DNA of 32,000 nt. Origin: Coprobacillaceae bacterium. GTDB lineage: Bacteria > Bacillota_I > Bacilli_A > Erysipelotrichales > Coprobacillaceae. Below the pieces are notes generated by a model, which saw nothing but the letters and a program-made list of their open reading frames with translations, did not search any database and was not told where the DNA came from. The position numbers and the translations under genes were made by a program. The stretch is taken from NCBI GenBank assembly GCA_963675515.1, contig OY776328.1, positions 420,001-452,000 of the forward strand, read 5' to 3'. Shown here piece after piece: positions 745-25,879 of this stretch (its first letter is position 1; every line of letters starts with the position of its first letter).

Positions 745-2106
745 ATGGTTAATACAATTAACAAAAATATCCTGGATGATCGTGAAAAGCATATAAAGAC
801 AAAGCAGACTGGTGGCTGTGGCGGTGATGGAATGCACTGTGACACAAACTCTGTCTCTGGTTCGGTAAGCCAAAGAGCTTGCGTGTATTGTGGCGCAAGG
901 GTTGTCTTGAATCCGATTACCGATGCCTATCATATCGTCCATGGACCTATTGGGTGTTCTAGTTATACATGGGATATCAGGGGAAGTCTTACCAGCGAGG
1001 AAGACATCTTCAGAAACAGTTTCTGCACGGATCTGCGGGAAACCGACATCATCTTCGGAGGAGCCGACAAGCTGGAAAAGGCAATTGACGAACTTTGTGA
1101 AAAACAAAGTCCCAAATTGGTGTTCGTTTACCAGACATGTATTGTCGGAGTCATCGGAGACGACGTTGAAGCGGTCTGCAAAAGAGCTGAAGAGAAGTTC
1201 CACATACCTGTCATACCAGTCAAATCACCAGGATTTTCTGGAAACAAGTCGACTGGATATAAAATGGCATGTAATGCCATCATGCAACTGCTGATGCCTT
1301 ACAAGGACATTCAAAAAGTCAAGGGTGTCAACATCCTGGGCGATTTCAACCTTGCGGGTGAAATGTGGATTATCAAAAATTACCTGGAAAAAATAGGGGT
1401 CAATGTAGTCTCTACGTTTACCGGTGATGCCAGTCATGACAACATGATTGAAGCTCCCGGGGCCACCTTAAATATAGTTCAATGTGCCGGTTCATCAACC
1501 TATCTGGCAAACAGAATGGAAGAAGAGTTTGGCATTCCTTTTATCAAGGTGAGTTTCTTTGGAATCGAGGACACGACCAACTCCCTGATCAGGATTGCTG
1601 AGGCTCTTGGAGATGAGAAGGCAAGAAGCAAAGCGGTCGAATTCTGTTCGACCGAAGGGAAGAAAGCCCAAGAGGCTATCGACAAATACCGCATGAACCT
1701 TGAAGGTAAAAAAGCGGCGATTTATGTAGGAGGTGGCTTCAAGGCCATCTCGCTGATCAAACAGTTCAATGCCGTGGGGATGGATACCGTACTTGTCGGC
1801 ACCCAGACCGGAAAAAAAGACGACTATGAAATGATCGAGAGTCTGGTCAACGATGACACGGTCATTCTCGATGACGCCAATCCGGCGGAACTCGAAGCGT
1901 TCATGATTGAAAAGAGCGCCGATATACTGGTTGGGGGAGTCAAAGAGCGGCCGCTGGCATACAAGCTGGGTGTCGCCTTCTGTGACCACAACCATGAAAG
2001 AAAACATGCCCTGGCTGGATTTGAAGGGATCTACAATTTCATTGAAGAGATCAACGACAGTATCAACAGTCCGGTCTGGGGATTCATCAAGGAGGGCAAT
2101 TTATGA
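745..2106 (+). CDS. nifE: Nitrogenase FeMo-cofactor biosynthesis scaffold protein NifE
   Basis: SD AAGGAGG (730-736) lies 8 nt upstream of the ATG. Translated motifs CVYCGARVVLNPITDAYHIVHGPIGC, VYQTCIVGVIGDD, NIVQCAGS and LGVAFCDHNHE are typical of NifE (NifD paralog). Position between nifK and nifN. Confidence 0.9.
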   Translation: MVNTINKNILDDREKHIKTKQTGGCGGDGMHCDTNSVSGSVSQRACVYCGARVVLNPITDAYHIVHGPIGCSSYTWDIRGSLTSEEDIFRNSFCTDLRETDIIFGGADKLEKAIDELCEKQSPKLVFVYQTCIVGVIGDDVEAVCKRAEEKFHIPVIPVKSPGFSGNKSTGYKMACNAIMQLLMPYKDIQKVKGVNILGDFNLAGEMWIIKNYLEKIGVNVVSTFTGDASHDNMIEAPGATLNIVQCAGSSTYLANRMEEEFGIPFIKVSFFGIEDTTNSLIRIAEALGDEKARSKAVEFCSTEGKKAQEAIDKYRMNLEGKKAAIYVGGGFKAISLIKQFNAVGMDTVLVGTQTGKKDDYEMIESLVNDDTVILDDANPAELEAFMIEKSADILVGGVKERPLAYKLGVAFCDHNHERKHALAGFEGIYNFIEEINDSINSPVWGFIKEGNL

Positions 2107-4775
2107 AAAGTAAGGTAAAACCTTTAGTAAATCTGAATACGAACCCTTGCAAGATGTGTATGCCGATGGGGGCGACTAACGCACTTTATGGGATCAAGGA
2201 ATGCATGACCATTCTCCATGGTTCCCAGGGGTGTGCGACCTACATTCGACGCCATATGGCTACCCATTACAATGAACCGATCGACATAGCTTCATCTTCA
2301 TTGACTGAAGAGGGTACTGTCTATGGCGGGCACAACAACCTTAAAAAAGGATTGCTGAACCTGATCAGCCTGTACCACCCCAAAGTTATCGGAATCATGA
2401 CAACATGTCTGGCTGAAACAATCGGAGAAGACATCGAAGGAATAACCGAAAGCTTCTATGAGGAAAATCCTCAGCATCGGGATATCACGATAATTCCGGT
2501 TCAAACACCGGGGTATTCGGGTACCCAGTATGAAGGTTACATGGCTGCGCTTTGTTCCGTCGCTGACAAACTGGATATGGATCTCACACCTAACGAAAAA
2601 GTTAATGTCATCCTGCCGCCACACAGCCCTGCCGATCTCCGTTTCATCAAACAGGAGTTCGCCCGGTTTGGAGTCGATGCCATCTTCCTTCCTGACAACT
2701 CCGACAACCTTGATGGCGGACATGAAAAACGCTATTCGAGATTGCCGCTGGGCGGGACACCGATCGAGGAACTGCGGAAAATGGCCGGTGCCCGGCTGAC
2801 TATCGAAATGACCGATGTTGATGGCAAGCTCTCGCCAGGCAAGGTCCTGAAAGAGAAATACGGGGTGGAGTACATCCAGATAAACAGCCCGATCGGTCTA
2901 AGAGCGATCGATAAGTTCTACAAGACACTCAAGGAGGTTTCCAAGAAGGAAATTCCTGCGGACATCCAGAAACAAAGAGACCGTTATCTTGACGGGATGA
3001 TCGATTCCCACAAGTACAATTCTGGCGGGAGAGCAGTCATCTTCGGGGAACCGGAATTTGTCATTTCGACAGTCAAGCTTTGCGAGGAAAACGGAATCAT
3101 GCCGGTCGTTGTCACTACCGGGAACGTGTTCCCGGAGCTGGACAAGTACGTAAGACCAACCCTGCAGTCGATGGCGAAAGGTTACTTCATCGATGAATTC
3201 ATCATCGCCGATGATGTCGATTTCAAGGAAATCGAGGAATTCGCGATCAAGACGGGAGCGAACCTGATGATCGGGAACTCGGATGGCAGAAGACTCGAGG
3301 AACATCTTGGGATTCCTTTGGTAAGACGGGCTTTCCCGATCCATGATCGAATCGGAGGCCAACGTTTGAGAACTCTTGGTTATGAAGGGAGTCTGACATA
3401 CCTGGATGATATCACCAATGCCATCCTGGCGCAGACCGAAACCGGGTTCAGGGAAGAAGCGTATGAAAAATATTACAAAGGGTCTGTGGCTCAACAGAAA
3501 AAACTAGCTAAAGAAGCCACAATCGCAACAAGCGTGGCCAAAGGAGAAGCGGTTATGAATGATATCGAAAAGAAAACCAAAGAACATCCGTGTTATACAT
3601 GCGGTGATCATAAATATGCAAGAATCCATCTGCCAGTTGCACCTTCTTGTAATGTCCAATGCAACTATTGCGTAAGAAAATTCGACTGCGTCAATGAAAG
3701 CCGGCCGGGAGTGACTTCTACAGTCCTTACTCCTGAACAGGCGTTCGATCGCTACAAAGCGGTCAAGGAAAAAATGCCTAACCTGACTGTTGTGGGAATC
3801 GCCGGGCCGGGAGATGCCTGCGGTGAAAGTTTCCCACAAGTCAAAAAGACACTGGAACTTATCCGCGAATATGACCCTGAAGTCACATTCTGTGTGTCGA
3901 CAAACGGGTTGATGCTCCCTCAAAGAGCCAATGATTTGATCGAGCTTGGAGTAAGCCATATTACTGTCACCATGAGTGCGGTAGATCCGGTTATTGCAGG
4001 TAAGATATATAAATATGTCAACTATATGGGTGAGAAATATGAAGGTACTCCAGCCGGTGCGATCATCCTATCAAACCAGCTGGCCGGGTTGCAGATGCTT
4101 ATCGACAAAGGCATTGTCTGCAAGGTCAATATCGTCACATTGAAAGGCATCAATGACCACCATATCAAAACCGTGGTTGAAAAATGCAAGGAGATGGGTA
4201 TCTTCATCACCAACATCATGCAGATGATTCCAGTCAAAGGAAGCGCCTTTGAAAACCTGCCGATGGTAAGCATGAAAGAAATCACGGAACTAAGAAAAGA
4301 ATGCGATACAATCCTGAAGCAGATGTATCATTGCAGACAATGTCGTGCCGATGCCGTAGGTACTCTCGACAATGATGTCTCAGTCGATCTCAAAGCCTTC
4401 TTTGAAGAAGAAAAGGCCAAAGAAGCAGCGGCTGCTGCGCCAGTAAAATTTGCAGTGGCTTCTAAGAGCGGAATCAATGTGGATCTCCACTTTGGCAAGG
4501 CAGCTGAATTCTACATTTACAATTTTGAAAAGGGTGAAATCAGATTTGTGGAAAAACGCAACGTTGACAAGTACTGCAGTGGCAATGACGAATGTGATGA
4601 TCATGACAGCAAAATTGCCAAGATCGTTTCGGCTATTGGGGATTGCAAAGTGGTCCTGGCGATGCGGATTGGCGAATCACCAAAAGAACTGTTGAGCGAA
4701 AAAGGAATCCGGGCGATTTCAACATTTGCGAATATCGAAACCGCAATCCAGGCGACTGCGACAAATCTAATCTAA
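2103..4775 (+). CDS. nifN-B: NifN-NifB fusion protein with a C-terminal NifX/NafY-like domain (clostridial NifN-B type)
   Basis: ATGA start/stop overlap with nifE. The N-terminal ~450 aa is NifN-like (ILHGSQGCATY, LMIGNS, PLVRRAFPIHDRIGG). The central part carries the radical-SAM motif CNVQCNYC (nt 3648-3671) within a NifB-like core (VVGIAGPGD, SHITVTM). The C-terminal ~110 aa (about nt 4440-4772; KFAVASKSGINVDLHFGKAAEFYIY ... GDCKVVLAMRIGESP) has the dinitrogenase FeMo-cofactor-binding (NifX/NifB-C) fold signature. Confidence 0.9.
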   Translation: MKSKVKPLVNLNTNPCKMCMPMGATNALYGIKECMTILHGSQGCATYIRRHMATHYNEPIDIASSSLTEEGTVYGGHNNLKKGLLNLISLYHPKVIGIMTTCLAETIGEDIEGITESFYEENPQHRDITIIPVQTPGYSGTQYEGYMAALCSVADKLDMDLTPNEKVNVILPPHSPADLRFIKQEFARFGVDAIFLPDNSDNLDGGHEKRYSRLPLGGTPIEELRKMAGARLTIEMTDVDGKLSPGKVLKEKYGVEYIQINSPIGLRAIDKFYKTLKEVSKKEIPADIQKQRDRYLDGMIDSHKYNSGGRAVIFGEPEFVISTVKLCEENGIMPVVVTTGNVFPELDKYVRPTLQSMAKGYFIDEFIIADDVDFKEIEEFAIKTGANLMIGNSDGRRLEEHLGIPLVRRAFPIHDRIGGQRLRTLGYEGSLTYLDDITNAILAQTETGFREEAYEKYYKGSVAQQKKLAKEATIATSVAKGEAVMNDIEKKTKEHPCYTCGDHKYARIHLPVAPSCNVQCNYCVRKFDCVNESRPGVTSTVLTPEQAFDRYKAVKEKMPNLTVVGIAGPGDACGESFPQVKKTLELIREYDPEVTFCVSTNGLMLPQRANDLIELGVSHITVTMSAVDPVIAGKIYKYVNYMGEKYEGTPAGAIILSNQLAGLQMLIDKGIVCKVNIVTLKGINDHHIKTVVEKCKEMGIFITNIMQMIPVKGSAFENLPMVSMKEITELRKECDTILKQMYHCRQCRADAVGTLDNDVSVDLKAFFEEEKAKEAAAAAPVKFAVASKSGINVDLHFGKAAEFYIYNFEKGEIRFVEKRNVDKYCSGNDECDDHDSKIAKIVSAIGDCKVVLAMRIGESPKELLSEKGIRAISTFANIETAIQATATNLI

Positions 4776-5128: not shown

Positions 5129-6109
5129 ATGGGATTCGTTATAGATGCCACATTGAGTGTGCTGGACGATTACAACCTTGGTAATGAGGATATTTGTGAA
5201 TTTATCGATCTTATCCGCAATCTTGGGATCAGGAACATCAAGATCTCATCAAAGATTCTTGGAGCAATTGAAGGGCAGTTGCCGGGTAATATCACCTATT
5301 ATATCGATTCGCTTGATAACGGTGTGACCGATTGCGATTCGCTGTCGAACAATATCCTCCGCTTTTCCCATCATGACACCATTTCAATCCACCACAACAT
5401 CCGCACCCGCGAAGTCAATGAAGTGATATTTGATCAGGATGGCTTCATATGTGATATGGTCCATCTCAAAGGTTTCGATTCATTGATACTCGATGGCAGT
5501 GAAGGCATTCTTGACCGGCTGGACCGAAGGATATCATATGAAAAACTGATTGTGACTCCCGGGGACAGCCATCGGTGCGCCAATGCGATCGCCTATCTGT
5601 TTTTACAAAGGGGTGTCCATGGGGTTATTACCACTTTGACCGGTGTTTCAAATCACGCATCGACCGAACAGGTAGTGATGGCCCGCCAGGTCATAGCAGG
5701 CTGTGACATCTATGATGTCTCTGTGTTTTCCAGACTGGCTGACTGGTTCGAGCGGGTGACTGCGGCTAAGATACCGCCTCACTTTCCGGTTTTGGGCAAA
5801 AGAATATTCCATGTCGAATCGGGGGTCCATGTCGATGGCATTCTCAAAAGGTCATCCAACTATGAACCATACAGTCCCAGTCTGGTCGGGCTCAAGCGGG
5901 AAATAGTGATTGGCAAACTGTCGGGAAGGGCATCCATCAATTACAAGTTGAGAATGCTTCTTGATCAGTCAAGATCGAAAAGCGATATTGATCTGATCCT
6001 TCAAAGGGTCAGGCAGCTTTCAATCGTTAAAAAGGGCAAGTTGACCGATGAGGACTTTGTCACTATCGTAAAGGAGTTGGATGTCTGTGAAGAATATAAA
6101 AATAGTTGA
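5129..6109 (+). CDS. nifV-omega: Homocitrate synthase omega subunit (NifV-omega): degenerate TIM-barrel plus conserved C-terminal segment
   Basis: The C-terminal part HVESGVHVDGILKRSSNYEPYSPSLVGLKREIVIGKLSGRAS aligns with the NifV/IPMS-family segment HEAGIHVDGLLK...YE...P..vG....lvlGKhSG. The N-terminal part resembles the barrel, but catalytic motifs are lost (VIDATLSVLDD instead of DxTLRDGxQ; no HxH). Gene order omega-alpha as in C. pasteurianum. Confidence 0.75.
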   Translation: MGFVIDATLSVLDDYNLGNEDICEFIDLIRNLGIRNIKISSKILGAIEGQLPGNITYYIDSLDNGVTDCDSLSNNILRFSHHDTISIHHNIRTREVNEVIFDQDGFICDMVHLKGFDSLILDGSEGILDRLDRRISYEKLIVTPGDSHRCANAIAYLFLQRGVHGVITTLTGVSNHASTEQVVMARQVIAGCDIYDVSVFSRLADWFERVTAAKIPPHFPVLGKRIFHVESGVHVDGILKRSSNYEPYSPSLVGLKREIVIGKLSGRASINYKLRMLLDQSRSKSDIDLILQRVRQLSIVKKGKLTDEDFVTIVKELDVCEEYKNS

Positions 6110-6884
6110 TTCAACCCTGCGTGATGGATTGCAGCAGCCGGGCATTCATCTCACAAACGAGCAGAAACTGAAAATCGCATTGCTTCTTGACAAGATGAAT
6201 GTTTATGAAATCGAGCTGGGCGTCTATGACTGGAATGGTGAAGACAGAGATTTCTATGAAACGCTAATGGAAGAAAAGAAGAATTCGAAAGTGTCACTTT
6301 GGTCGCGGCTGAACAAGACCGATGTGGAACAAACGTGTCTCCATCAACCCGACATCATCCATATCTCGATACCTGTTAGCGATATCCAGATAGCATCCAA
6401 AATGCATACCGACAAATCCTCTTTGGAAAAGCGGTTGCTGGAGTGCCTTGAAGTCGCCAATCAATACAAGATCGATGTCACACTGGGACTGGAAGACGCT
6501 TCCCGGGCCGAACTGGAATATCTTATCGATATTTCCAAACTGGCCAAACAAAACAATGTGAAGACAATCCGGCTGGCCGATACGGTTGGAGTGTACACAC
6601 CGGTGAGTGCTTTGGAGGCTATTGAAGCCATCAAGAAGGAAGTGGATATCGCCATTGAAGTGCACGAACACAATGACTTCGGGATGGCAATTGCCAACTC
6701 GATCACGATGCTCAACGGAGGGGCCGATTACATGGACTGCACATTGTTGGGGATCGGTGAAAGGACAGGCAATTGCGACCTCAGGGAATTCATAGAGGCT
6801 ACAAGAGATTACTATGATTCAAGAACCGATATCGGTGCCCTTGAAGAACTGGACGAATATATTAAAGAAATACTGATAGAATGA
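6081..6884 (+). CDS. nifV-alpha: Homocitrate synthase alpha subunit (NifV-alpha), catalytic HMGL-like barrel
   Basis: VDSTLRDGLQQPG, EVHEHNDFGMAIANS and LLGIGERTGNCDL are catalytic-barrel motifs of homocitrate / 2-isopropylmalate synthases. The protein stops where the NifV C-terminal domain would begin. It overlaps the nifV-omega stop. The start could be ATG 6081 or GTG 6087. Confidence 0.85.
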   Translation: MSVKNIKIVDSTLRDGLQQPGIHLTNEQKLKIALLLDKMNVYEIELGVYDWNGEDRDFYETLMEEKKNSKVSLWSRLNKTDVEQTCLHQPDIIHISIPVSDIQIASKMHTDKSSLEKRLLECLEVANQYKIDVTLGLEDASRAELEYLIDISKLAKQNNVKTIRLADTVGVYTPVSALEAIEAIKKEVDIAIEVHEHNDFGMAIANSITMLNGGADYMDCTLLGIGERTGNCDLREFIEATRDYYDSRTDIGALEELDEYIKEILIE

Positions 6885-6903: not shown

Positions 6904-7197
6904 GTGAATATGGAATCGAAAATTTTAAGACTCAAACCGGGCTATATTTTAAGGGAATTGGGCGGTGAGTTCTGCATATTTAATGAACTGGATAGTAATG
7001 CGGGATCACTTCTGGGATTGCCTTCGGTCAACGAGACATGCGCATTTCTCTGGAACCGGCTGGAAATCGGGGCCGTGAAGGAAGAGCTGGTCAAAGCGGT
7101 GATGATCGAATGCGACCTTGAAGAAGATGACGCCTTATATGAGGTTCATGAAGTGTTGGCAAAGCTGATTCATGGCCGGATTATTGAAACGGAGTAG
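6904..7197 (+). CDS. PqqD-family-like small protein (putative RiPP-recognition-element / peptide chaperone fold)
   Basis: 97 aa. The pattern LKPGYILRELGGEFCIF...SLLGLPSVNETCAFLWNRLE..VKEELVKAVMIECDLEEDDALYEVHEVLAKLIHGRII matches the PqqD layout (short beta strands, LNETaa..w, then D..eFl..L...gli). It starts 19 nt after the nifV-alpha stop. The start is ambiguous (GTG 6904 or ATG 6910) and the SD is weak. Confidence 0.6.
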   Translation: MNMESKILRLKPGYILRELGGEFCIFNELDSNAGSLLGLPSVNETCAFLWNRLEIGAVKEELVKAVMIECDLEEDDALYEVHEVLAKLIHGRIIETE

Positions 7198-7207
7198 GAG
7201 ATTAATT

Positions 7208-7837
7208 ATGAAGAAAATTGCTGTATTCTTGAATGAGGATAAGAAACTGGATAATTTTTACAATTGCAATACGATAATGATATACGGCGGAGGGGTGAGC
7301 GAGTGCCTGGTTCTTGACGAACAGGCATTTGACAAGATCACGCCGACATCAACCAGGGTGATAATCGACCAGACCGGCGACATATCAGAGAAAGTCGACG
7401 ACTGCAGCGCAATCGTATTTGGCGAAATCGCCGGGGTCGCATATTCCGTATTCGACAAAGCCAAATTCAAGATATTCACAATTGAAGAAAATTCTCCAGA
7501 TGCAATCATATCAATCTTCCGCGACTTGTTTGAGTTGGACAAGGAAATCGCCAAGAAAAAGGAAGCCCTTCTAGAACTCAAACCGCATGAAACAAGCGAA
7601 CCAGGCATCTATTATTTCGATCTGTTCACAGCCTTGCAGGACAATCCGGAAGTGTCTTCGAAAAAAATGTTGAAGGAATTTTTCGACAGTATTCCCTTTG
7701 TCATGCTGAAAATGAAAGTCAACCATATGCCACCATGGATTGAGCGCGATGGAAGATTCAATGTCGCATCGGATGAACAACAACCGATCCAAACTGTAGT
7801 TGTCACAAAGAAAAAATGTAATCAGGAGGACAGATAA
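7208..7837 (+). CDS. NifX/NafY-fold N-terminal domain protein, possibly AnfO family (nitrogenase accessory)
   Basis: SD TAGGAG (7195-7200) lies 7 nt before ATG 7208. The longer 7172 start merely overlaps the previous gene. MKKIAVFLNED...DDCSAIVFGEIAGVAYSVFDKAKFKIFTIE resembles the FeMo-cofactor-binding domain layout (MKIAv..., gC..vi...iG..a...L...gikv). Overall size (~209 aa) and nif context are reminiscent of AnfO. The family assignment is not verified. Confidence 0.55.
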   Translation: MKKIAVFLNEDKKLDNFYNCNTIMIYGGGVSECLVLDEQAFDKITPTSTRVIIDQTGDISEKVDDCSAIVFGEIAGVAYSVFDKAKFKIFTIEENSPDAIISIFRDLFELDKEIAKKKEALLELKPHETSEPGIYYFDLFTALQDNPEVSSKKMLKEFFDSIPFVMLKMKVNHMPPWIERDGRFNVASDEQQPIQTVVVTKKKCNQEDR

Positions 7838-8821
7838 ATGATGAACTATATGGTATTAGATGAAGAGCACATTCAAATGGAATTTGGAATTATCGGAGCT
7901 GTTACCTCGTTTCGAAAATATCCTTCGGGAGAACTGGAAAGTGTCAATGTCAGTGATATGAACATGGTGGTGACTCACGCTGGTGAGCTTATACCCGCCT
8001 ATACGACAACCGCCCGCAGAAAACAAAAACCCTCAATCACATTCAGCCGCAGCGGTCTGATCAAATCGGTCCATATGGAAGAACAGACTGAAATCGAAAC
8101 ACCGATCGGCACATTGCCTGCTGAATATGTGACCTTCTATGAAACCGGCGAAGTACACCGTGTATTTGTGACTGACGGACAAATCAGCGGCTTCTGGAGC
8201 GAGGAGGATGAGATGGAATATGTGATTCCTCTTACCTTTGAATTTGATTTCGCTAAATTCACCGCCCGGACAAACGGGATATGCTTCTATCGAAGCGGTG
8301 CGATAAAATCGATCACCCTCTATCCAGGAGAAGAAATAGAATTGCAGACTCCGGCTGGAAAGATGAAAACGAAAATCGGTTTCTCGCTCTATGAAAACGG
8401 GGAACTCGAATCGGTTGAGCCTAGCAGTGAAGTGCTGATCAACACACCGATTGGAATGTTTACGGCATCTGATTCGATGGCGGTGGGAGTGAATGCTGAC
8501 AAGAACTCGATCAAATTCAATGAATCAGGGGTGTTGGTTTCTTTCAAGACATCGGATCAAAGAGTCGTTGTCACAACTGACGAAGGAAGTTTCAAGATAT
8601 TCATGCCGGTTGAAGTGCCTCATCCGCTCCTGGATGATATGCCAATGCTGCTGCCAATGGAGATCAATTTCGACTTCAAAAAGGACACAGTCACCATCAA
8701 GACCGACAAAACCGGAGAATTCTCAATGGAAAAAGACAAGTTTGTCGTATCCCAACTGCCTAAAGACGGTCCGGGATGTTCGCCGGTTGATTGTGCGACA
8801 TGTTCAATCTGCAACAATTAA
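7838..8821 (+). CDS. Repeat protein (6-7 MORN/YwqK-like beta-hairpin repeats) with C-terminal CX4CX2CX2C tail; function unknown
   Basis: SD AGGAGG (7824-7829). The ATG immediately follows the previous stop. Repeated core [FY]-x-[SNT]-G-x-[LIV]-x-S-[VIF] occurs at residues 28, 69, 100, 150, 184 and 227 (YPSGELESV, FSRSGLIKSV, FYETGEVHRV, FYRSGAIKSI, LYENGELESV, FNESGVLVSF), often followed by ..TP[IA]G. The tail is GPGCSPVDCATCSICNN (Cys codons within 8777-8812). Confidence 0.7.
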   Translation: MMNYMVLDEEHIQMEFGIIGAVTSFRKYPSGELESVNVSDMNMVVTHAGELIPAYTTTARRKQKPSITFSRSGLIKSVHMEEQTEIETPIGTLPAEYVTFYETGEVHRVFVTDGQISGFWSEEDEMEYVIPLTFEFDFAKFTARTNGICFYRSGAIKSITLYPGEEIELQTPAGKMKTKIGFSLYENGELESVEPSSEVLINTPIGMFTASDSMAVGVNADKNSIKFNESGVLVSFKTSDQRVVVTTDEGSFKIFMPVEVPHPLLDDMPMLLPMEINFDFKKDTVTIKTDKTGEFSMEKDKFVVSQLPKDGPGCSPVDCATCSICNN

Positions 8822-8862: not shown

Positions 8863-8889
8863 AAAGGCGCATCCCTATGCGCTTTTTTT
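8863..8889 (+). terminator. Rho-independent terminator ending the nif maturation operon
   Basis: Stem GCGCAT (8867-8872) / ATGCGC (8877-8882), loop CCCT, followed by T7 (8883-8889). Confidence 0.8.
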
Positions 8890-8915: not shown

Positions 8916-8950
8916 CAAAAAAGGAAAGCTGTCATAGAAGCTGCTTTCCC
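8916..8950 (-). terminator. Rho-independent terminator of the regulator gene (minus strand)
   Basis: On the minus strand, GGAAAGC...GCTTTCC (plus coordinates 8923-8929 / 8944-8950) encloses the stop codon and is followed by TTTTTT (complement of A6 at 8917-8922). Confidence 0.6.
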
Positions 8951-9876
8951 ATATTTGTCACGTCGTATGCCTGCAGGGCGGAAACCTGTTCCTTGAATTC
9001 GTCGGACTGGATTATCCTGATCATCTGGGCGATTTCAGGACGCTTCAAGTCGCTTTTGCGCACCGCAAGATCGTATTGTTCCTGTTTTGCGAAGACGAAA
9101 TCGATATTGGGGAACTGGTTCGCGACACTTTTGGTTCCCCAGGCGCAATCGGCACCGCCCTTTGCGACCAGTGCGGCTGCTGCCAGGTGGGAGTTGACGG
9201 TTCGAGAATAACCGGCCACTTGCTCGTGCTCGATGCCCGTAGCCTTCATCAAAGAATCGGTAAGGACGCGGATACCGCTGCCTCTTTCCCGGTTCACCAT
9301 GATCACATCAGGGCGGGAAAGATCCTCGATGCCGATTATGTTTTTCGGATTGCCTTTTTTCACATATATCCCGACTGGCCGATTGGCGATATGGTAGAGA
9401 TTTATTTCCTCGCCAGGAAGCAGGCTTTTTATGAACGGAATATTGTAGGTGTCCGTTTCCATGTCCCATAGATGGGTTGTGGCCACGGTCACATTGCGTT
9501 TGTACATCGAATACAAGCCGTTGTAGCTTCCCTGATAAGACCTGATGAACTGGGTCCCATGCAATTGCTGGTTGACCGCCGAACAAAGCATGTCGATAAT
9601 CAGATCCTGCCCACAGACAATGATGTTTGTCGAAGAATCGGCGGCATCGGTCGTTGTCACATCCTGGTCGATAGTTGTTATGGCCTGCTCCAAAGGAGGT
9701 TTAGGACTGGTAGCGCCCGGATCCAAGAGGGCGTAAACATCGGATTCCCATATTCGAAATTGCTTGCCCACTTTGGTGGCCGGCAGTCTGTTTTTCTTGA
9801 TCATGTCATATATCGTATTCTGCCTTACTTTAAGGATGGCAGCCGCTTCCTTTGGCGATATCAGTTTTCTGTTCAT
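8932..9876 (-). CDS. Transcriptional regulator: excisionase/MerR-like HTH fused to a periplasmic-binding-protein-like (putative oxyanion/molybdate-sensing) domain
   Basis: The N-terminus ISPKEAAAILKVRQNTIYDMIKKNRLPATKVGKQFRIWESDV is a classic HTH_17/excisionase-type motif. The C-terminal ~230 aa has the PBP-like domain pattern found fused to HTH or MoeA in anaerobes. SD AGGAGAGG (complement of 9884-9891). Divergent from modABC. Confidence 0.7.
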   Translation of the reverse strand: MNRKLISPKEAAAILKVRQNTIYDMIKKNRLPATKVGKQFRIWESDVYALLDPGATSPKPPLEQAITTIDQDVTTTDAADSSTNIIVCGQDLIIDMLCSAVNQQLHGTQFIRSYQGSYNGLYSMYKRNVTVATTHLWDMETDTYNIPFIKSLLPGEEINLYHIANRPVGIYVKKGNPKNIIGIEDLSRPDVIMVNRERGSGIRVLTDSLMKATGIEHEQVAGYSRTVNSHLAAAALVAKGGADCAWGTKSVANQFPNIDFVFAKQEQYDLAVRKSDLKRPEIAQMIRIIQSDEFKEQVSALQAYDVTNMGKQLL

Positions 9877-10107: not shown

Positions 10108-10953
10108 ATGGAAAGAAATGTTTATGAATTGACGAGGTTTTACAAGGCTGTAAAAACAGTCAAGATGATTGGATTCTCATTTTTGATATTGTCGCTTGTC
10201 GGGTGTGGCCAGGCAACCGCAAATACAACAATCGAGCAGTTGACATTTGGCGATGTGGATACTGACAATGTGACAACTATCGCTTTGGGGAATTCTGATG
10301 TTCCGGTCGGGCAGTATTCACAGGAAATTTTCACAAATATGGGAGTGTGGGACAATATTCAATCAAAGATCTCTTATTGTTCGAATGTGAAAGACGTATT
10401 GTCGCAAGTTGAACAGGGGGCAGTCGACTGTGGGGTTGTTTACGCGACTGATGCGGCGACAAGCACTGGTGTGACGGTGGCTGATCTGGCGACCAGTGAG
10501 GAATTGCCTGTTGATGTGAGTTATCCGGTTGCGATAACTGCAAGTTCAACACAAAAGCAGGCGGCAGCGGTCTTCTTGAACTTCCTGCTGACTGACACAG
10601 CCAAAGCGGAATTCGAGAAAGTCGGATTCACAATGGACACAAACAAGACCAGCGAGGATATGGAATTCACAGATGACGTGACCCTGACCGTATTTGGCGC
10701 TGCAAGTCTGACCGAATCGCTGAGTGCCATCGAAACCGGGTTTGAGGAAGCTTATCCAAGCATCGATCTTGAAATAAATCTAAATTCCAGCGGGACCTTG
10801 AAAACCCAGATCGAACAAGGGGCTCAGGCTGATGTGTTCTTCTCAGCAGCCCAAAAACAGATGACCGGTCTGATCGAGGGTGGCTATATCGACGAGTCGA
10901 CCAAAATTGATTTGTTGGTAAATCGGGTCGTACTGATTGTACCTGCTCAATAA
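10108..10953 (+). CDS. modA: Molybdate ABC transporter substrate-binding lipoprotein, apparently circularly permuted ModA
   Basis: Strong SD GGGGGAGGG lies 7 nt upstream. Lipobox LSLVGC (Cys33). Residues ~57-176 (IALGNSDVPVGQY...NVKDVL...CGVVYATDA...YPVAI...KVGFT) align with the C-terminal half of canonical ModA. Residues ~191-281 (LTVFGAASLTESL...NLNSSGTL..QIEQGAQADVFFSA...NRVVLIVPA) align with its N-terminal half. Confidence 0.8.
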   Translation: MERNVYELTRFYKAVKTVKMIGFSFLILSLVGCGQATANTTIEQLTFGDVDTDNVTTIALGNSDVPVGQYSQEIFTNMGVWDNIQSKISYCSNVKDVLSQVEQGAVDCGVVYATDAATSTGVTVADLATSEELPVDVSYPVAITASSTQKQAAAVFLNFLLTDTAKAEFEKVGFTMDTNKTSEDMEFTDDVTLTVFGAASLTESLSAIETGFEEAYPSIDLEINLNSSGTLKTQIEQGAQADVFFSAAQKQMTGLIEGGYIDESTKIDLLVNRVVLIVPAQ

Positions 10954-10967
10954 AATAAGAAAGGGGA

Positions 10968-11645
10968 TTGGTGATTATGGACTATTTTCCGCTCTTCAAC
11001 TCAATCAGGATATCTTTGATAGCGACCGTAATCACCTTTTTCCTTGGTATCTTATGCGCATATTATATTGTGAAGTTGCCCCGGGTGATAAAGGGAGTTC
11101 TTGATACATTGCTTACCATTCCGATGGTGTTGCCCCCTACGGTAGTCGGTTTCATGATTCTGATAGTGATTTCGCCAAAAAGCGCCCTGGGCAAGCTGGT
11201 GGCAACTTACTTCAATACGACATTGACGATGAAATGGTACAGCGCGATCTTTGCGGTAGTGATGGTCACTTTTCCGCTGATGTATCGGACAGTGCGAAGT
11301 TCATTTGAATCGTTCGACCAGAATATTATCGCAAGTGCGAAAACATTGTGCCTGTCCAACACATACATTTTCTGGCATATCATCCTGCCAAACTGCAAGG
11401 AAGGCATTATCGCGGGAATCGTACTGGCCTTTGCGCGAGGTCTGGGGGAATACGGTGCTACGAGCATGGTGGCGGGCTATATCGCCGGAAAGACTTCTAC
11501 CATCGCCACGACAGTCGCTTATCTCTGGCAGACAAACCAGGACGGGGCGGCAATGAACTGGGTATTGATCAATCTTGCGATCTCGTTTGTGATCATGACT
11601 CTGGTCAATGTTTTTGAAAAGCAGGTCAGTATCGGAAGGAAGTGA
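10968..11645 (+). CDS. modB: Molybdate ABC transporter permease ModB
   Basis: Multi-TM protein with the EAA-loop region ASAKTLCLSNTYIFWHIILPNCKEGIIAGIVLAFARGLGEYGATSMVAG, typical of ModB/CysTW permeases. The start is likely ATG 10977 (SD AAAGGGGA at 10959-10966) rather than TTG 10968. Confidence 0.85.
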   Translation: MVIMDYFPLFNSIRISLIATVITFFLGILCAYYIVKLPRVIKGVLDTLLTIPMVLPPTVVGFMILIVISPKSALGKLVATYFNTTLTMKWYSAIFAVVMVTFPLMYRTVRSSFESFDQNIIASAKTLCLSNTYIFWHIILPNCKEGIIAGIVLAFARGLGEYGATSMVAGYIAGKTSTIATTVAYLWQTNQDGAAMNWVLINLAISFVIMTLVNVFEKQVSIGRK

Positions 11646-11649
11646 ATCA

Positions 11650-12717
11650 ATGTCTATCACATGCAGGATAAAAAAGAAACTGGGCAATTTCAATCTGGAC
11701 ATAGATTTTTCGGTTGACAGGGAAACTGTTGCATTGATCGGGGCTTCGGGATGTGGCAAAAGCGTTACTCTTAGATGCATTGCCGGGATTGAGACTCCCG
11801 ATGAGGGGCTGATCGTCATCAACGGGAAAGTGGTGTTCGACTCCAAAAGGAAAATCAACCTGGCACCTCAGAAAAGGAAAGTCGGTTACCTGTTCCAGGA
11901 TTATGCCCTTTTTCCCAATATGACAGTCGAAAGGAACATCAAAGCCGTGGTACCCAAGGGTGTTCCATATGATATCGATGAGATATTGGCCCGGTTTCAC
12001 CTTCTTGACCAGAAGGATCTGTATCCCCGGGAACTATCCGGGGGCCAGAAACAGCGCTGCGCCCTGGCCCGGATAATCGTGACCGACCCGGAAATAATCC
12101 TTTTGGACGAGCCGTTTTCCGCACTGGACAGTTATTTGCGCTGGCAGATGGAGCAGGAGGTCGTGTCGGTTATCCAACAGGCGAACAAACCTGCGATATT
12201 CGTATCCCATGACCGTGATGAGGTTTACCGGATCTCCGACAAAGTTGTTGTGGTCAATGAAGGAAAAAGTGACGAAATCCTGGAGAAACACATGCTCTAC
12301 CAGCATCCAAAGACATATGCGGATGCCCTGCTTACCGGATGCAAGAACATCTGCGAGGTTGAAATAAAGGGCGGCCATTTGCGAGCAAAAGACTTTGAAA
12401 TCACCATTCCTTATGATAAGATGAATGTGGGTGAAGCATTTCATCACGACAGGATACCGGCATCAATATCATATCTGGGAATAAGATCCAAGAAGATATT
12501 GCCTGCCCATCTGGCAGGTGGAGCTGGCGAAGTTGTCGTAATATCCTACGATATCGAAAGCGTAGCTGAGGGGTTATTTACCTATACACTGATGATCAGG
12601 CCTGAAAATGCGAAGAAAAGCATGTGCTGGGAAGTGTCGAAAGAAGTATATCGCAAACTTCAAGACCATCCCCGCAAAATCGCGATTCCGTTGAATGAAT
12701 GTTTATTGCTGGAATAA
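11650..12717 (+). CDS. modC: Molybdate ABC transporter ATP-binding protein ModC (with C-terminal TOBE-like region)
   Basis: SD GGAAGGAAG precedes ATG 11650. Walker A GASGCGKS, signature LSGGQKQR, Walker B ILLDEP, H-loop VSHD. The extra ~130-aa C-terminal domain is as in ModC/CysA. The 11608 start overlaps modB and is less likely. Confidence 0.85.
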   Translation: MSITCRIKKKLGNFNLDIDFSVDRETVALIGASGCGKSVTLRCIAGIETPDEGLIVINGKVVFDSKRKINLAPQKRKVGYLFQDYALFPNMTVERNIKAVVPKGVPYDIDEILARFHLLDQKDLYPRELSGGQKQRCALARIIVTDPEIILLDEPFSALDSYLRWQMEQEVVSVIQQANKPAIFVSHDRDEVYRISDKVVVVNEGKSDEILEKHMLYQHPKTYADALLTGCKNICEVEIKGGHLRAKDFEITIPYDKMNVGEAFHHDRIPASISYLGIRSKKILPAHLAGGAGEVVVISYDIESVAEGLFTYTLMIRPENAKKSMCWEVSKEVYRKLQDHPRKIAIPLNECLLLE

Positions 12718-16259: not shown

Positions 16260-16490
16260 TAATATATGGACCTCCAACCTAAATATGCCCATACAATACC
16301 ACTTTTAAACACAAATTACAAGATTAATTGTGCATTTTTAGGAATTGTTAAAATAATAGTTGATAATTTATTATTTATAAAAAAATGTGTGGATTTGGTG
16401 GCTGATTATCGGGTTTTTCCGGATTTCAGCCGGCAATATTTTGGGTTGGTTTATTGCGATTAAATGTGTATAATGAAAAAGGTGATAGAA

Positions 16491-17300
16491 ATGAAGAAAA
16501 TATTGAATATAAATATAATTATGGCTCTGGCGGCCCTTGGAGTTATCGGGTATTTCATGGTAATGTATTTCCCGCTTTACCAGTTCCATACCTTAAGCAA
16601 GCAAGTCCGCTACGATATGGAACTTGAAGGTGGCGATTTCAACAACGCCTTCATCCTCGATGGTCTGAGCCTTTATCTTGATGACGACAATCAGGAATTG
16701 CATGGTGGCGAACTTACAATCCTGGGGGCAGGCAGTTTTGTGGATGGTATGGAATACAAACTTGAAGTGAACCTCAATGATGATGTGGTAATCTGCGACT
16801 ACCAGTTTGACTACGAGCCAAGTAAGCAGGAATATCAGATTGGAATCATTGATGACGCTGCGCTTCCCCAAAATGTCGACAAGGCGACGGCAACCATCTA
16901 CGGCGATTTTGACCAGGTTGTCGCCAAAGTGGAGCTTGGATTGGCGAAAGCCCGGTTGCTTGATGGCTACAACAGGAACATGCGGATGGAAAATGTGACA
17001 CTTACCAGCGGCCATATCAGGCTTGGACAATTGATCACGATGCTCGACCTTTCTGGATATGACAGCATCGCTCTGGAGTACCGTTATCTCATAAGCGACG
17101 ACCTTGACAAGGACGACAACAATTCATATAAGGTTTTTGAAAAAATCGAAGGGACCCCTGAAGAAATTCTCGACAGCACCGGTTATGGGACATACGATTT
17201 TTCAACTGATCAGAAACTGATCGCATCGAGACCGCTGTCGGTGGCGGTCATAATGAAAAAAGGCGACGAGACAAATGTGGTCAAAATCGACCTGGACTAG
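16491..17300 (+). CDS. Hypothetical membrane-anchored protein (N-terminal TM helix, acidic extracytoplasmic domain)
   Basis: SD AAAGGTGA lies 5 nt before ATG 16491. Candidate promoter TTGGTT-17-TATAAT (-10 at 16470-16475) lies downstream of the alternative 16464 start. No recognisable family. Confidence 0.6.
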   Translation: MKKILNINIIMALAALGVIGYFMVMYFPLYQFHTLSKQVRYDMELEGGDFNNAFILDGLSLYLDDDNQELHGGELTILGAGSFVDGMEYKLEVNLNDDVVICDYQFDYEPSKQEYQIGIIDDAALPQNVDKATATIYGDFDQVVAKVELGLAKARLLDGYNRNMRMENVTLTSGHIRLGQLITMLDLSGYDSIALEYRYLISDDLDKDDNNSYKVFEKIEGTPEEILDSTGYGTYDFSTDQKLIASRPLSVAVIMKKGDETNVVKIDLD

Positions 17301-17303
17301 GAG

Positions 17304-17735
17304 GTGACAGTGTTGAAAACAGTAAAATCATACAACATTCCCTACTCGCTGTTTGTGAATCTGGCAGTCACATTCGCCCCGGCCCTGGCTGCAAATCTTG
17401 GGGTCATCATGGCCTACTACCGGATATCACTGGCAGCTGGACTGGGAAGATTGTTTCTTGAAAACATATATACAACCGGCTACTTCATCTTGCTGTGGCT
17501 GATGAATTTCGTCATTTTCGAGGCGGTGGGGGAAATTTTCGAACAAGTCCCTGAGATAAGATACATTGAAAGATCAGGCCACCGCATTCTTTCAATCCTG
17601 CCACTTGGCGCGATCCTGATTGGCTTTTTGTTGGCAATGAGCATCCCGATCCTGTTCAAGTCAAACTTTATCATCCTGATCGCCGGCGAAATGCTGTATG
17701 TCTGGATGAAAGAAAAATATGGAGGAGGACATTGA
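17304..17735 (+). CDS. Hypothetical integral membrane protein (about 4 TM helices)
   Basis: SD AGGAGGTG (17299-17306). The true start is probably GTG 17310 or TTG 17313. Hydrophobic segments are consistent with 4 TM helices. It is translationally coupled to its neighbours. Confidence 0.55.
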   Translation: MTVLKTVKSYNIPYSLFVNLAVTFAPALAANLGVIMAYYRISLAAGLGRLFLENIYTTGYFILLWLMNFVIFEAVGEIFEQVPEIRYIERSGHRILSILPLGAILIGFLLAMSIPILFKSNFIILIAGEMLYVWMKEKYGGGH

Positions 17736-24858: not shown

Positions 24859-25601
24859 TTCAATACCCCCAATACCAGACCCACGCCAAGGGCTATCGCG
24901 ATGGCGATCATCAAAGCTTCGATAATCCGCGATATGCCTGAAAGATAATCCTCATCGATGAAGTCGCGCAGGCTGTTCGTTATTGCAAGTCCCGGAACAA
25001 GGAGCATCAGTGTACCGATCTGGAGAATGTCGAGATTGCCGGAAAGACCATAACGGACAAGTCCGTTTGCTCCCAAGGAAATAAAGGTGGCTTCGATAAA
25101 GGTCCGCACCAGTCTGTTGATTTTGAGCTTGACCAGGAAATAATTCAATCCAAAGACACACAGCCCGATCAACAATGCGCTGATGCAATCATCCAACGCT
25201 CCACCGAATATGCCGGTGAAGCCAAAAGCCCCCAAACCATATCCGACGACCTGGAGCGAACTGCGATGTTCCTTATCCTTGATCTGGCGGATCTTCTTGG
25301 CAATCTGGTCGGAACTTTGATGGTTTGTTTCCAAATCACGCAGCAGCTGGTTGAGACTGGCAAACCGGTCGAAGTTGATCATATGGCTTGAAGTTGTTTT
25401 GGATATTGTGAATACATTGTCGTTTTTCAAGGTGACGGTTATGATAAGATACGATGGCAATGCGAACACTGTGACATCACGATAGTGATAGCTTGTCAAA
25501 ATACGGCTTATGCCGGTTTCAACCCGGGCAATCTCGCTGCCGCACTCGATCAAAGACACCCCTAATTCAATAAACTGTTTGACTAACTCTTTTTCTTCCA
25601 T
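24855..25601 (-). CDS. Threonine/serine exporter family protein, large subunit (ThrE / YjjP-like)
   Basis: Soluble N-terminal half followed by TM helices. LLVPGLAITNSLRD is the characteristic family motif. It is paired with the small subunit gene. Confidence 0.75.
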   Translation of the reverse strand: MEEKELVKQFIELGVSLIECGSEIARVETGISRILTSYHYRDVTVFALPSYLIITVTLKNDNVFTISKTTSSHMINFDRFASLNQLLRDLETNHQSSDQIAKKIRQIKDKEHRSSLQVVGYGLGAFGFTGIFGGALDDCISALLIGLCVFGLNYFLVKLKINRLVRTFIEATFISLGANGLVRYGLSGNLDILQIGTLMLLVPGLAITNSLRDFIDEDYLSGISRIIEALMIAIAIALGVGLVLGVLK

Positions 25602-25879
25602 GGCAATAATTGTAGACTATCTACAGCTCCTTAACCATTAGATTATAACGCAAATTCAAATGATTTTCAAAATTATTAAGTGGTGCATCACCCAAAAACT
25701 ATTGACCTATGTCGGATAGAAGGCCTAAAACATGGTATTTTAGAATAAAAAAAGGCGCAAAAGACAGATACTGCTTGTGGATCGCTGATTGAACATGTTT
25801 TTAGGCGAATGGAGCATCAGATGCAAATTATATGTATTTTTTCGAAAATTTAGGCTATAATAATCTACATGGAGGATAG

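Follow-up and report, generated by a model that had tools for sequence, protein, structure and literature searches.

The described systems closest to the gene treated here are accessory proteins that handle the metal clusters of nitrogenase. AnfO of Azotobacter vinelandii has two domains, the N-domain binding the immature FeFe protein (apo-dinitrogenase) and the C-domain binding isolated FeMo-cofactor and FeV-cofactor; the protein requires His203 but neither Cys159 nor Cys201 (PMC11938142). In the anfHDGKOR cluster of the same organism, anfO is immediately followed by anfR, whose inactivation causes poor (Fe-only) diazotrophic growth, and AnfO and AnfR were suggested to take part in the same process (PMC9310841). 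NifQ binds a Mo-Fe-S cluster through a Cx4Cx2Cx5C motif. The subject of this work is a protein of 327 residues, here called the repeat protein, encoded at positions 7838-8821 of a 32,000-nucleotide stretch from a Coprobacillaceae bacterium (contig OY776328.1, positions 420,001 to 452,000 of the forward strand), which as a whole is called the window. The protein comprises a beta-hairpin repeat body and a C-terminal tail with four cysteines (Cys4 tail), and its gene directly follows an AnfO-family gene in a molybdenum nitrogenase (nif) cluster.

Research on nitrogenase maturation and the transfer of nitrogen fixation to crops both need the full set of accessory genes, which has been defined mainly in Proteobacteria. 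The repeat-protein gene and its AnfO-family neighbour are near-constant in clostridial-type Mo-nif clusters (about 195 species genomes), yet the repeat-protein gene is annotated only as 'hypothetical'. The family is undescribed, widespread and of new architecture, within a known kind, the nitrogenase cofactor or cluster accessory proteins. No description of it was found in a literature search by subject (AnfO-like, MORN, nif) and by homologue locus tags, and the AnfO-family genes of Firmicute nif clusters were mentioned in the literature searched as annotations only. The repeat protein very probably takes part in nitrogenase maturation, with the AnfO-like protein as its partner. The pairing or fusion with the AnfO family, not recognised in a first-pass annotation made from the sequence of the window, is the most informative feature identified, and the protein is more interesting for this partnership than for its resemblance to ferredoxins.

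The gene and its AnfO-family partner

The features that define the pair are the following.

7838..8821, forward strand: coding sequence of the repeat protein with Cys4 tail, last gene of the nif operon (open reading frame and translation)
7208..7837, forward strand: AnfO-family gene, 209 residues (longest reading frame from 7172), Pfam AnfO_nitrog 3.7e-30
7823..7828, forward strand: Shine-Dalgarno sequence AGGAGG, 9 nucleotides upstream of the ATG (direct sequence reading)
8867..8889, forward strand: intrinsic-terminator-like hairpin GCGCAT-CCCT-ATGCGC followed by T7, end of the operon (sequence; RNAfold)

The reading frame starts with ATG and ends with a double stop (TAA TAA). The stop codon of the AnfO-like gene (TAA, 7835-7837) directly abuts the ATG at 7838, which suggests that the repeat protein is translationally coupled to its neighbour. 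Because the double stop is followed by the terminator-like hairpin and then by a convergent gene, this is taken as the last gene of the operon. RNAfold gave -13.3 kcal/mol for the segment 8856-8895; the hairpin itself was absent from the output of a consensus terminator scan. The encoded protein has 36.4 kDa and a pI of 4.6, and the exact sequence is present in the public collection as P0001. Its highest Kyte-Doolittle mean over 19 residues is 1.0, so that neither signal peptide nor transmembrane segment is assigned, as had been proposed. No Pfam or NCBIfam match was obtained for the whole protein, the AnfO_nitrog domain of Pfam included, and a profile search against PDB sequences returned only a chance match to SPC24 (E 0.65). 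Together with the structural search described below, these results agree with the earlier statement that the protein fits no named nif family.

The AnfO-like partner also matches TIGR02940 (3.2e-17), below the family cutoff. It carries an H-x-P-x-W motif; in the form C-x-H-x-P-x-W this is kept in 54 of 56 AnfO-like neighbours, H185, P187 and W189 being invariant in the AnfO alignment (A4). In the window the motif reads V-N-H173-M-P-P-W (NHMPPW at 7721-7738, with the His173 codon at 7724-7726), a sequence context that fits the C201-x-H203 of A. vinelandii AnfO, the histidine essential there being kept. A cysteine within the last 10 residues was identified in 43 of the 56 AnfO-like proteins (C204 of 209 in the window); this terminal cysteine places an extra thiol near the start of the partner, or in the linker of fused proteins.

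Fusions of AnfO_nitrog with the repeats were identified in four database-called proteins (P0141, P0203, P0251 and P0134), one of which, P0203, is encoded directly after nifV-alpha. Apparent AnfO-repeat 'fusions' of 537 residues in Lacrimispora loci were rejected, an in-frame stop lying within them. An AlphaFold2 (AF2) model of the fusion P0141 had a predicted local distance difference test score (pLDDT) of 87.7 and a predicted template-modelling score (pTM) of 0.69. With Foldseek this model gave matches of about 110 columns, at probability 1.0, to NifX in NifEN (9ian_F), to the NafY core (1p90) and to 2re2. The matches apparently belong to the AnfO part, since the repeat domain modelled alone gave none; the output carried no query coordinates. 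Given the biochemistry of AnfO, the histidine motif and the NifX/NafY fold matches, the constant partner of the repeat protein is a cofactor-chaperone-type protein, here in a Mo-nif and not an anf cluster.

Distribution and synteny

A word-indexed search identified 346 homologous cluster representatives, nearly all of 320-340 residues and 'hypothetical' where named, and a profile search gave 463 matches among 1.84 billion representatives. In a scan with one genome per species 195 encoding loci were identified, 80 of which were fetched and examined. Genes of the nif set were present in the flanks of 77 of these 80, in line with the proposed nif linkage. An AnfO-family gene adjoined the repeat-protein gene in 76 of the 77 loci with upstream sequence, ending within a few dozen bases of its start, and AnfG/VnfG was identified in none of the 80. 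The hosts comprise Lachnospiraceae, Oscillospiraceae, Ruminiclostridium, Sporolactobacillus and Christensenellales-like metagenome-assembled genomes (MAGs), and also, from termite gut, a few MAGs that were binned as Treponema or Coriobacteriales.

The reverse test started from AnfO-like genes in metagenomes. A member of the repeat-protein family was found immediately downstream in 59 of 78 loci, and in three further loci it lay 4-7 kb downstream, beyond modA. These metagenome loci were of Mo-nif type or free of context, none of them carrying AnfG.

The repeat body

The body of the protein and the segment that joins it to the tail are divided as follows.

7895..8611, forward strand: six degenerate beta-hairpin repeats of about 35-40 residues, MORN-variant type (regular expression with shuffles, hhalign, AF2 strand pairs)
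7895-8011, 8021-8134 and 8123-8242, forward strand: repeat units A, B and C
8264-8377, 8369-8479 and 8495-8611, forward strand: repeat units D, E and F
8612..8770, forward strand: non-repeat C-terminal beta segment (residues 259-311) bearing the tail (AF2 strands 258-306)

At least six copies of a repeat had been described in the first-pass annotation, and the six-copy arrangement was recovered here by several routes. The strict core expression [FY]x[SNT]Gx[LIV]xS[VIF] matched three times (residues 28, 151 and 185), and a relaxed version, allowing one optional residue and S/R, matched six times at the positions listed earlier (28, 69, 100, 150, 185 and 227); none of 20,000 residue shuffles reached either count. 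For hhalign the six units were taken as segments of a 29-sequence family alignment. Most pairs among units A, B, D, E and F aligned with 85-97% probability, the exceptions being A-D (73%), E-F (65%) and A-F (24%). Unit C matched the others over a core of about 12 residues only, and the segment of residues 259-311 (unit G) had no hhalign match to the repeat units. The TP[IA]G turn said to follow the repeats is present after units B, D and E (residues 88, 171 and 203) and not after all six.

The AF2 model of the protein (pLDDT 86.5, pTM 0.80) consists of strand hairpins and only two short helices, one of them within the body (residues 122-126). Foldseek returned no PDB match below E 0.001 for this model, and for this reason neither a propeller nor a solenoid is assigned. 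The part of the earlier scaffold proposal that stands is therefore a predicted soluble, all-beta repeat protein; the solenoid or propeller topology found no support.

The resemblance to MORN-variant or YwqK-type repeats is likewise partial. It holds for the core motif and for relatives, since 10 of the 29 aligned sequences match MORN_2 (best E 1.3e-7) and PF07661 matches are precomputed for many wider relatives; the protein itself lies below detection, with no Pfam MORN_2 match even at E<=10. The AnfO fusions that were checked score 19-27.5 bits for MORN_2, under the gathering score of 29.6 bits. By the regular expression, hhalign and the AF2 hairpins, the protein has the tandem-repeat hairpin core Y-x-x-G-x-h-x-x-h, and on its sequence it may loosely be placed in the MORN-variant repeat class.

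The cysteine tail

The tail is a single short feature.

8771..8818, forward strand: flexible tail GPGCSPVDCATCSICNN with C314-x4-C319-x2-C322-x2-C325 (AF2 pLDDT, family conservation)

The four codons (C314 at 8777-8779, C319 at 8792-8794, C322 at 8801-8803 and C325 at 8810-8812) form the only cysteine cluster, as had been noted, the sole other cysteine of the protein being C149. The C-terminal 16 residues are predicted to be flexible and are the only long low-confidence part of the AF2 model, with pLDDT 52 for residues 311-320 and 45 for 321-327; these values would fit a segment that is disordered without its ligand. Conservation of the tail is strong. At least four cysteines within the last 25 residues were identified in 116 of the 120 closest cluster representatives, with the consensus C-[ST]-P-x-D-C-A-x-C-[ST]-[LIM]-C. 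The 29-sequence alignment, with a mean column identity of 55%, has C319 and C322 without exception and shows at least 90% conservation of C314 and C325. Among the genome loci the spacing Cx4Cx2Cx2-3C is kept in 72 of 80.

The tail had been called ferredoxin-like, which reduces to an analogy of spacing. Pfam and NCBIfam searches with the protein and with eight family tails gave no Fer4-type match at E<=10, no NifQ match and no zinc-finger family match. A ferredoxin domain was accordingly rejected: the motif is Cx4Cx2Cx2C on a low-confidence tail and not CX2CX2CX3CP in a beta-alpha-beta fold. One distant tail had a sub-threshold match to 'FeoB-associated Cys-rich' (E 0.009, 16.7 vs 27 bits), which is not relied on. 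Short peptides with comparable spacing have been studied as maquettes: the 16-mer KLCEGGCIACGACGGW (FdM maquette) assembles a [4Fe-4S] cluster, and so does CGGGCGGCGGC, with Cx3Cx2Cx2C spacing (PMC10946529). By analogy with them, a stretch of 11-12 residues that holds four cysteines and a CxxCxxC core is enough, chemically, for one cubane. Binding of a metal or cluster by the tail is slightly favoured.

Distant relatives

Distant members of the family were identified in Clostridium sensu stricto, Desulfosporosinus, Syntrophomonadaceae and others. Their tails are variable: Cx2Cx2Cx2C in 54 of 117, Cx2Cx2Cx3C and Cx3Cx2Cx3C in others, and Cx3Cx2Cx2C among the profile-search matches. The Clostridium acetobutylicum copy has CxxC only, and some distant members have no cysteine tail. 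The copy on a Clostridium butyricum chromid (L095, NZ_CP039706.1) has modABC/TOBE on one side and nifH on the other, follows an AnfO-family gene directly and ends in ...LTLKGDL, with no cysteine. In the same nif cluster a peptidyl-prolyl isomerase gene was observed between nifN-B and nifV-omega (24971-25729 of that locus). A related tail-less protein was found next to AnfO, a molybdate-type regulator, TOBE and modAB. In one Firmicute the set of AnfO-like gene, relative and regulator adjoins an AnfG/VnfG-type alternative nitrogenase cluster.

Relatives from high-GC organisms, comprising Desulfovibrionales/Deltaproteobacteria and others, lack the Cys4 tail (P0245, P0236, P0228, P0264, P0258 and similar). 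Many of them end in a single cysteine 2-4 residues from the C-terminus (...PCAEG, ...YSC, ...FSCG). A contig of 68% GC (L096) keeps the AnfO pairing, and another relative (L097) stands alone.

The first-pass annotation had tied its proposal to homologues that carry the tail and are linked to nif genes. In the protein's own subfamily both properties are near-universal; in the wider family each holds in part, the C. butyricum copy being nif-linked and tail-less and those of Clostridium pasteurianum, C. acetobutylicum and Anaerocolumna cellulosilytica being tailed and not nif-linked. Because AnfO-paired copies without a tail exist and the tails of relatives vary, the repeat body has its own function, one linked to AnfO-family proteins, to which the tail is a common addition that can be dispensed with.

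The surrounding cluster

The window carries a clostridial-type Mo-nitrogenase cluster formed, in this order, by the 3' end of nifK, nifE, a nifN-nifB fusion, a 2Fe-2S ferredoxin gene (clostridial equivalog), nifV-omega, nifV-alpha, a PqqD-family open reading frame, the AnfO-family gene and the repeat-protein gene. The remaining features are listed below.

2103-4775, forward strand: nifN-nifB fusion, 890 residues, with NifX-like C-terminal domain
5129-6109 and 6081-6884, forward strand: nifV-omega and nifV-alpha, a split, order-swapped homocitrate synthase with a 29-nucleotide overlap
6904..7197, forward strand: PqqD-family reading frame of 97 residues, similar to RiPP recognition elements (RRE), between nifV-alpha and the AnfO-like gene, Pfam PqqD 4.4e-06
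8932..9876, reverse strand: HTH_17 and PBP_like (molybdate/tungstate-type) regulator, convergent with the repeat-protein gene (Pfam)
10108-12717, forward strand: modABC, beyond the regulator (Pfam)

The nifN-B fusion and the split homocitrate synthase are a known clostridial arrangement. The PqqD-like frame was present in 39 of the 80 related loci and may or may not be part of the AnfO module; in two loci (L073 and L074) it lies downstream of the repeat-protein gene. The same type of regulator was found beside pairs of an AnfO-like gene and a relative in four loci (L001, L088, L091 and L095), even without an adjacent nif gene.

In Lacrimispora-type loci, such as that of Lacrimispora sinapis (L028, 7668-9062), an extra frame of 464 residues separates nifV-alpha from the PqqD-like gene. 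No Pfam match was obtained for it at E<0.01, and it may encode a divergent nif-specific chaperonin-like protein, the GroEL likeness having been seen by eye (...EGEAL...KAPGFGDRRK...). Elsewhere in the window, two adjacent forward-strand frames (16464-17300 and 17304-17735, of 278 and 143 residues) upstream of a YgjP-like metallopeptidase gene had no Pfam match.

Proposed role and alternatives

The repeat protein is associated with nif genes and with AnfO. Being conserved and paired with or fused to an AnfO-type cofactor-binding protein, it is probably a helper in the building or loading of nitrogenase clusters. The reading towards which we lean, by a small measure, is that of an accessory protein in the maturation or trafficking of nitrogenase metalloclusters, acting with the AnfO-like partner, in which the tail ligates an Fe-S-type cluster or intermediate. 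The MORN-variant body of about 300 residues would be a docking platform on the AnfO-like protein, with its NifX/NafY-type fold and cofactor-binding histidine motif, and would probably dock on apo-NifDK or NifEN too. The disordered Cys4 tail would act as a tethered set of thiolate ligands, holding a cluster of Fe-S type (a cubane, for example [4Fe-4S], possibly heterometal) during hand-over, or alternatively capping a NifB-co/FeMo-co intermediate at that stage. This proposal of docking and tail ligation is made because maquette peptides assemble [4Fe-4S] and the cysteine motif of NifQ holds a Mo-Fe-S cluster. A physical interaction with the AnfO-like protein, the binding of a metal or cluster by the tail, and the maturation step that would be served are what we infer.

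Several points weigh against this role for the tail. Nif-linked homologues of the C. butyricum type lack any cysteine tail, and the core role of the family therefore cannot depend on it. Stand-alone tailed copies were identified away from nif and AnfO in C. pasteurianum, C. acetobutylicum, Anaerocolumna cellulosilytica and a Desulfovibrionales MAG. The cofactor ligand of A. vinelandii AnfO is a histidine, mutations of its conserved cysteines having no effect (PMC11938142). Searches with eight family tails gave no match to an Fe-S family at the sequence level, and four clustered cysteines could equally bind zinc or act as a redox switch. The family is known here from sequence and models.

Other readings of the protein are not mutually exclusive, either with one another or with the cluster-ligating role. 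It could be a docking or adaptor protein whose tail is a structural zinc knuckle or a thiol redox/O2 switch, still acting with the AnfO-like protein in maturation or in protection, for instance in a Shethna-protein-like protective complex in anaerobes. Linkage to nif and AnfO speaks for this as much as for a cluster ligand, the tail-less nif-linked homologues show a body with its own function, and the wide variation of tail spacing is what a loosely constrained metal or redox site would show. We consider it rather unlikely: cubanes are classically bound by the CxxCxxC spacing that recurs as the core of these tails, the tail has no zinc-finger family match, and four cysteines within 12 residues have, to our knowledge, no usual zinc-knuckle or ribbon geometry. 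A heterometal donor of NifQ type, a sub-case of the cluster-ligating role in which the tail builds a [Mo-3Fe-4S]-type cluster and supplies molybdenum to NifEN/NifH in Firmicutes, is improbable. Firmicutes are, as far as we know, generally without NifQ; the first three cysteines have the Cx4Cx2C spacing of NifQ, and modABC, TOBE and a molybdate-type regulator are recurrent neighbours, even outside nif clusters. Against these stand the lack of NifQ homology, a mod-nif adjacency that may be incidental, the relative beside an alternative (AnfG/VnfG-type) nitrogenase cluster, and the tail-less members, whose contexts are the richest in Mo-related genes.

The body of about 310 residues could be the leader or scaffold of a ribosomally synthesised and post-translationally modified peptide (RiPP), with a modified tail and the PqqD-like protein as recognition element. 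The PqqD/RRE-family frame does lie two genes upstream, and the Cys-rich C-terminal core is conserved. That gene, however, is missing from half of the loci with the same tail, and no peptide maturase (radical-SAM/SPASM, YcaO or Lan), protease or exporter was identified near it in the inspected neighbourhoods except NifB; on these two grounds the reading is weakened. The body is also more conserved than a leader would be expected to be, the four closest relatives being 78, 78, 78 and 64% identical, to be compared with 72, 65, 65 and 59% for the four AnfO-like homologues found. A RiPP-like role is very improbable, and barely credible is that of a generic MORN/YwqK-type passenger at the operon end, with no nitrogenase role. 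Some sources label relatives 'antitoxin YwqK' and stand-alone homologues exist; the AnfO/nif synteny, however, hardly varies among Lachnospiraceae, Oscillospiraceae, Sporolactobacillus, Ruminiclostridium and others, the genes are fused in places, and start and stop codons abut. A toxin-antitoxin role as YwqK was rejected on the synteny, the fusions and the absence of a toxin partner.

If the protein is a cluster carrier or cofactor escort, it would make up for the NifQ/NafY/NifX-type genes that are apparently absent from these compact clusters, it would extend the recently discovered 'cofactor sorting' by AnfO to Mo-nitrogenases, and it would show in nature a tethered Fe-S-binding peptide of maquette-like kind. 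A broader proposal, which we regard as unlikely, is that the AnfO-like protein and the repeat protein together do in Firmicutes (and Desulfovibrionales) what NifQ and NafY do in Proteobacteria, delivering heterometal or finished cofactor to NifEN/NifDK. The tail would then carry [4Fe-4S] or [Mo-3Fe-4S], or would cap NifB-co/FeMo-co by thiolates, and the NifX-fold/histidine module of the AnfO-like protein would hold the cofactor. Were this true, the AnfO family would serve as a general system of cofactor trafficking instead of being something special to Fe-only nitrogenase, and the repeat protein, possibly the AnfR equivalent, would be the obligate second subunit of the AnfO system.

Comparison with known systems

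With its gene placed directly behind an AnfO-family gene, and joined to one as a fusion in some organisms, the repeat protein is a partner of AnfO and not its homologue. AnfO binds apo-dinitrogenase and the FeMo- and FeV-cofactors, and the repeat protein is therefore placed in cofactor trafficking. The AnfO-like gene of the window belongs to a Mo-type nifHDKEN-BV cluster, whereas Azotobacter AnfO belongs to an anf cluster. The role of keeping the wrong cofactor out, described for Azotobacter AnfO, may not apply here, since the AnfO-like gene sits in Mo-nif and AnfG was absent from all 80 loci.

AnfR occupies the same position after anfO and is the closest candidate for the identity of the repeat protein, the comparison being one of synteny alone. 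The Firmicute relative that follows AnfO beside an AnfG/VnfG-type cluster adds to this likeness. Names were checked for 20 clusters of high-GC, tail-less or single-Cys relatives, which come from Desulfovibrionales/Deltaproteobacteria; all are called 'hypothetical' and none AnfR. A tblastn search of PLSDB plasmids with the repeat protein, the AnfO-like protein and AnfG gave only C. butyricum chromids and Nostoc vnf.

NifQ, also nif-linked and molybdenum-related, shares with the protein a short cysteine motif of which the first three cysteines have the common spacing Cx4Cx2C. The last spacing differs, there is no sequence or domain similarity, and the motif stands here on a disordered tail of a beta-repeat protein. 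Membership in NifQ (PF04891) was rejected, as no Pfam or NCBIfam match was obtained and only that spacing is common. With NafY, NifX and NifY the pair shares a two-module logic, apo-enzyme docking plus cofactor binding, and the AnfO-like partner has their fold. The repeat protein itself is without that fold, Foldseek having returned no match, and those chaperones ligate the cofactor by histidine and not by a cysteine cluster.

The ferredoxin maquettes (KLCEGGCIACGACGGW) resemble the tail in having four cysteines in 11-12 residues and a CxxCxxC core, and distant family members carry the identical Cx3Cx2Cx2C spacing; the maquettes are synthetic peptides, and the first spacer of the protein is one residue longer. 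The MORN-variant/YwqK proteins (PF07661, COG2849) share the repeat core Y-x-[NST]-G-x-[LIV]-x-S. The units here are longer (hairpin pairs of about 35-40 residues with a TPIG turn) and come with no toxin partner, whereas YwqK proteins have neither the nif context nor the cysteine tail.

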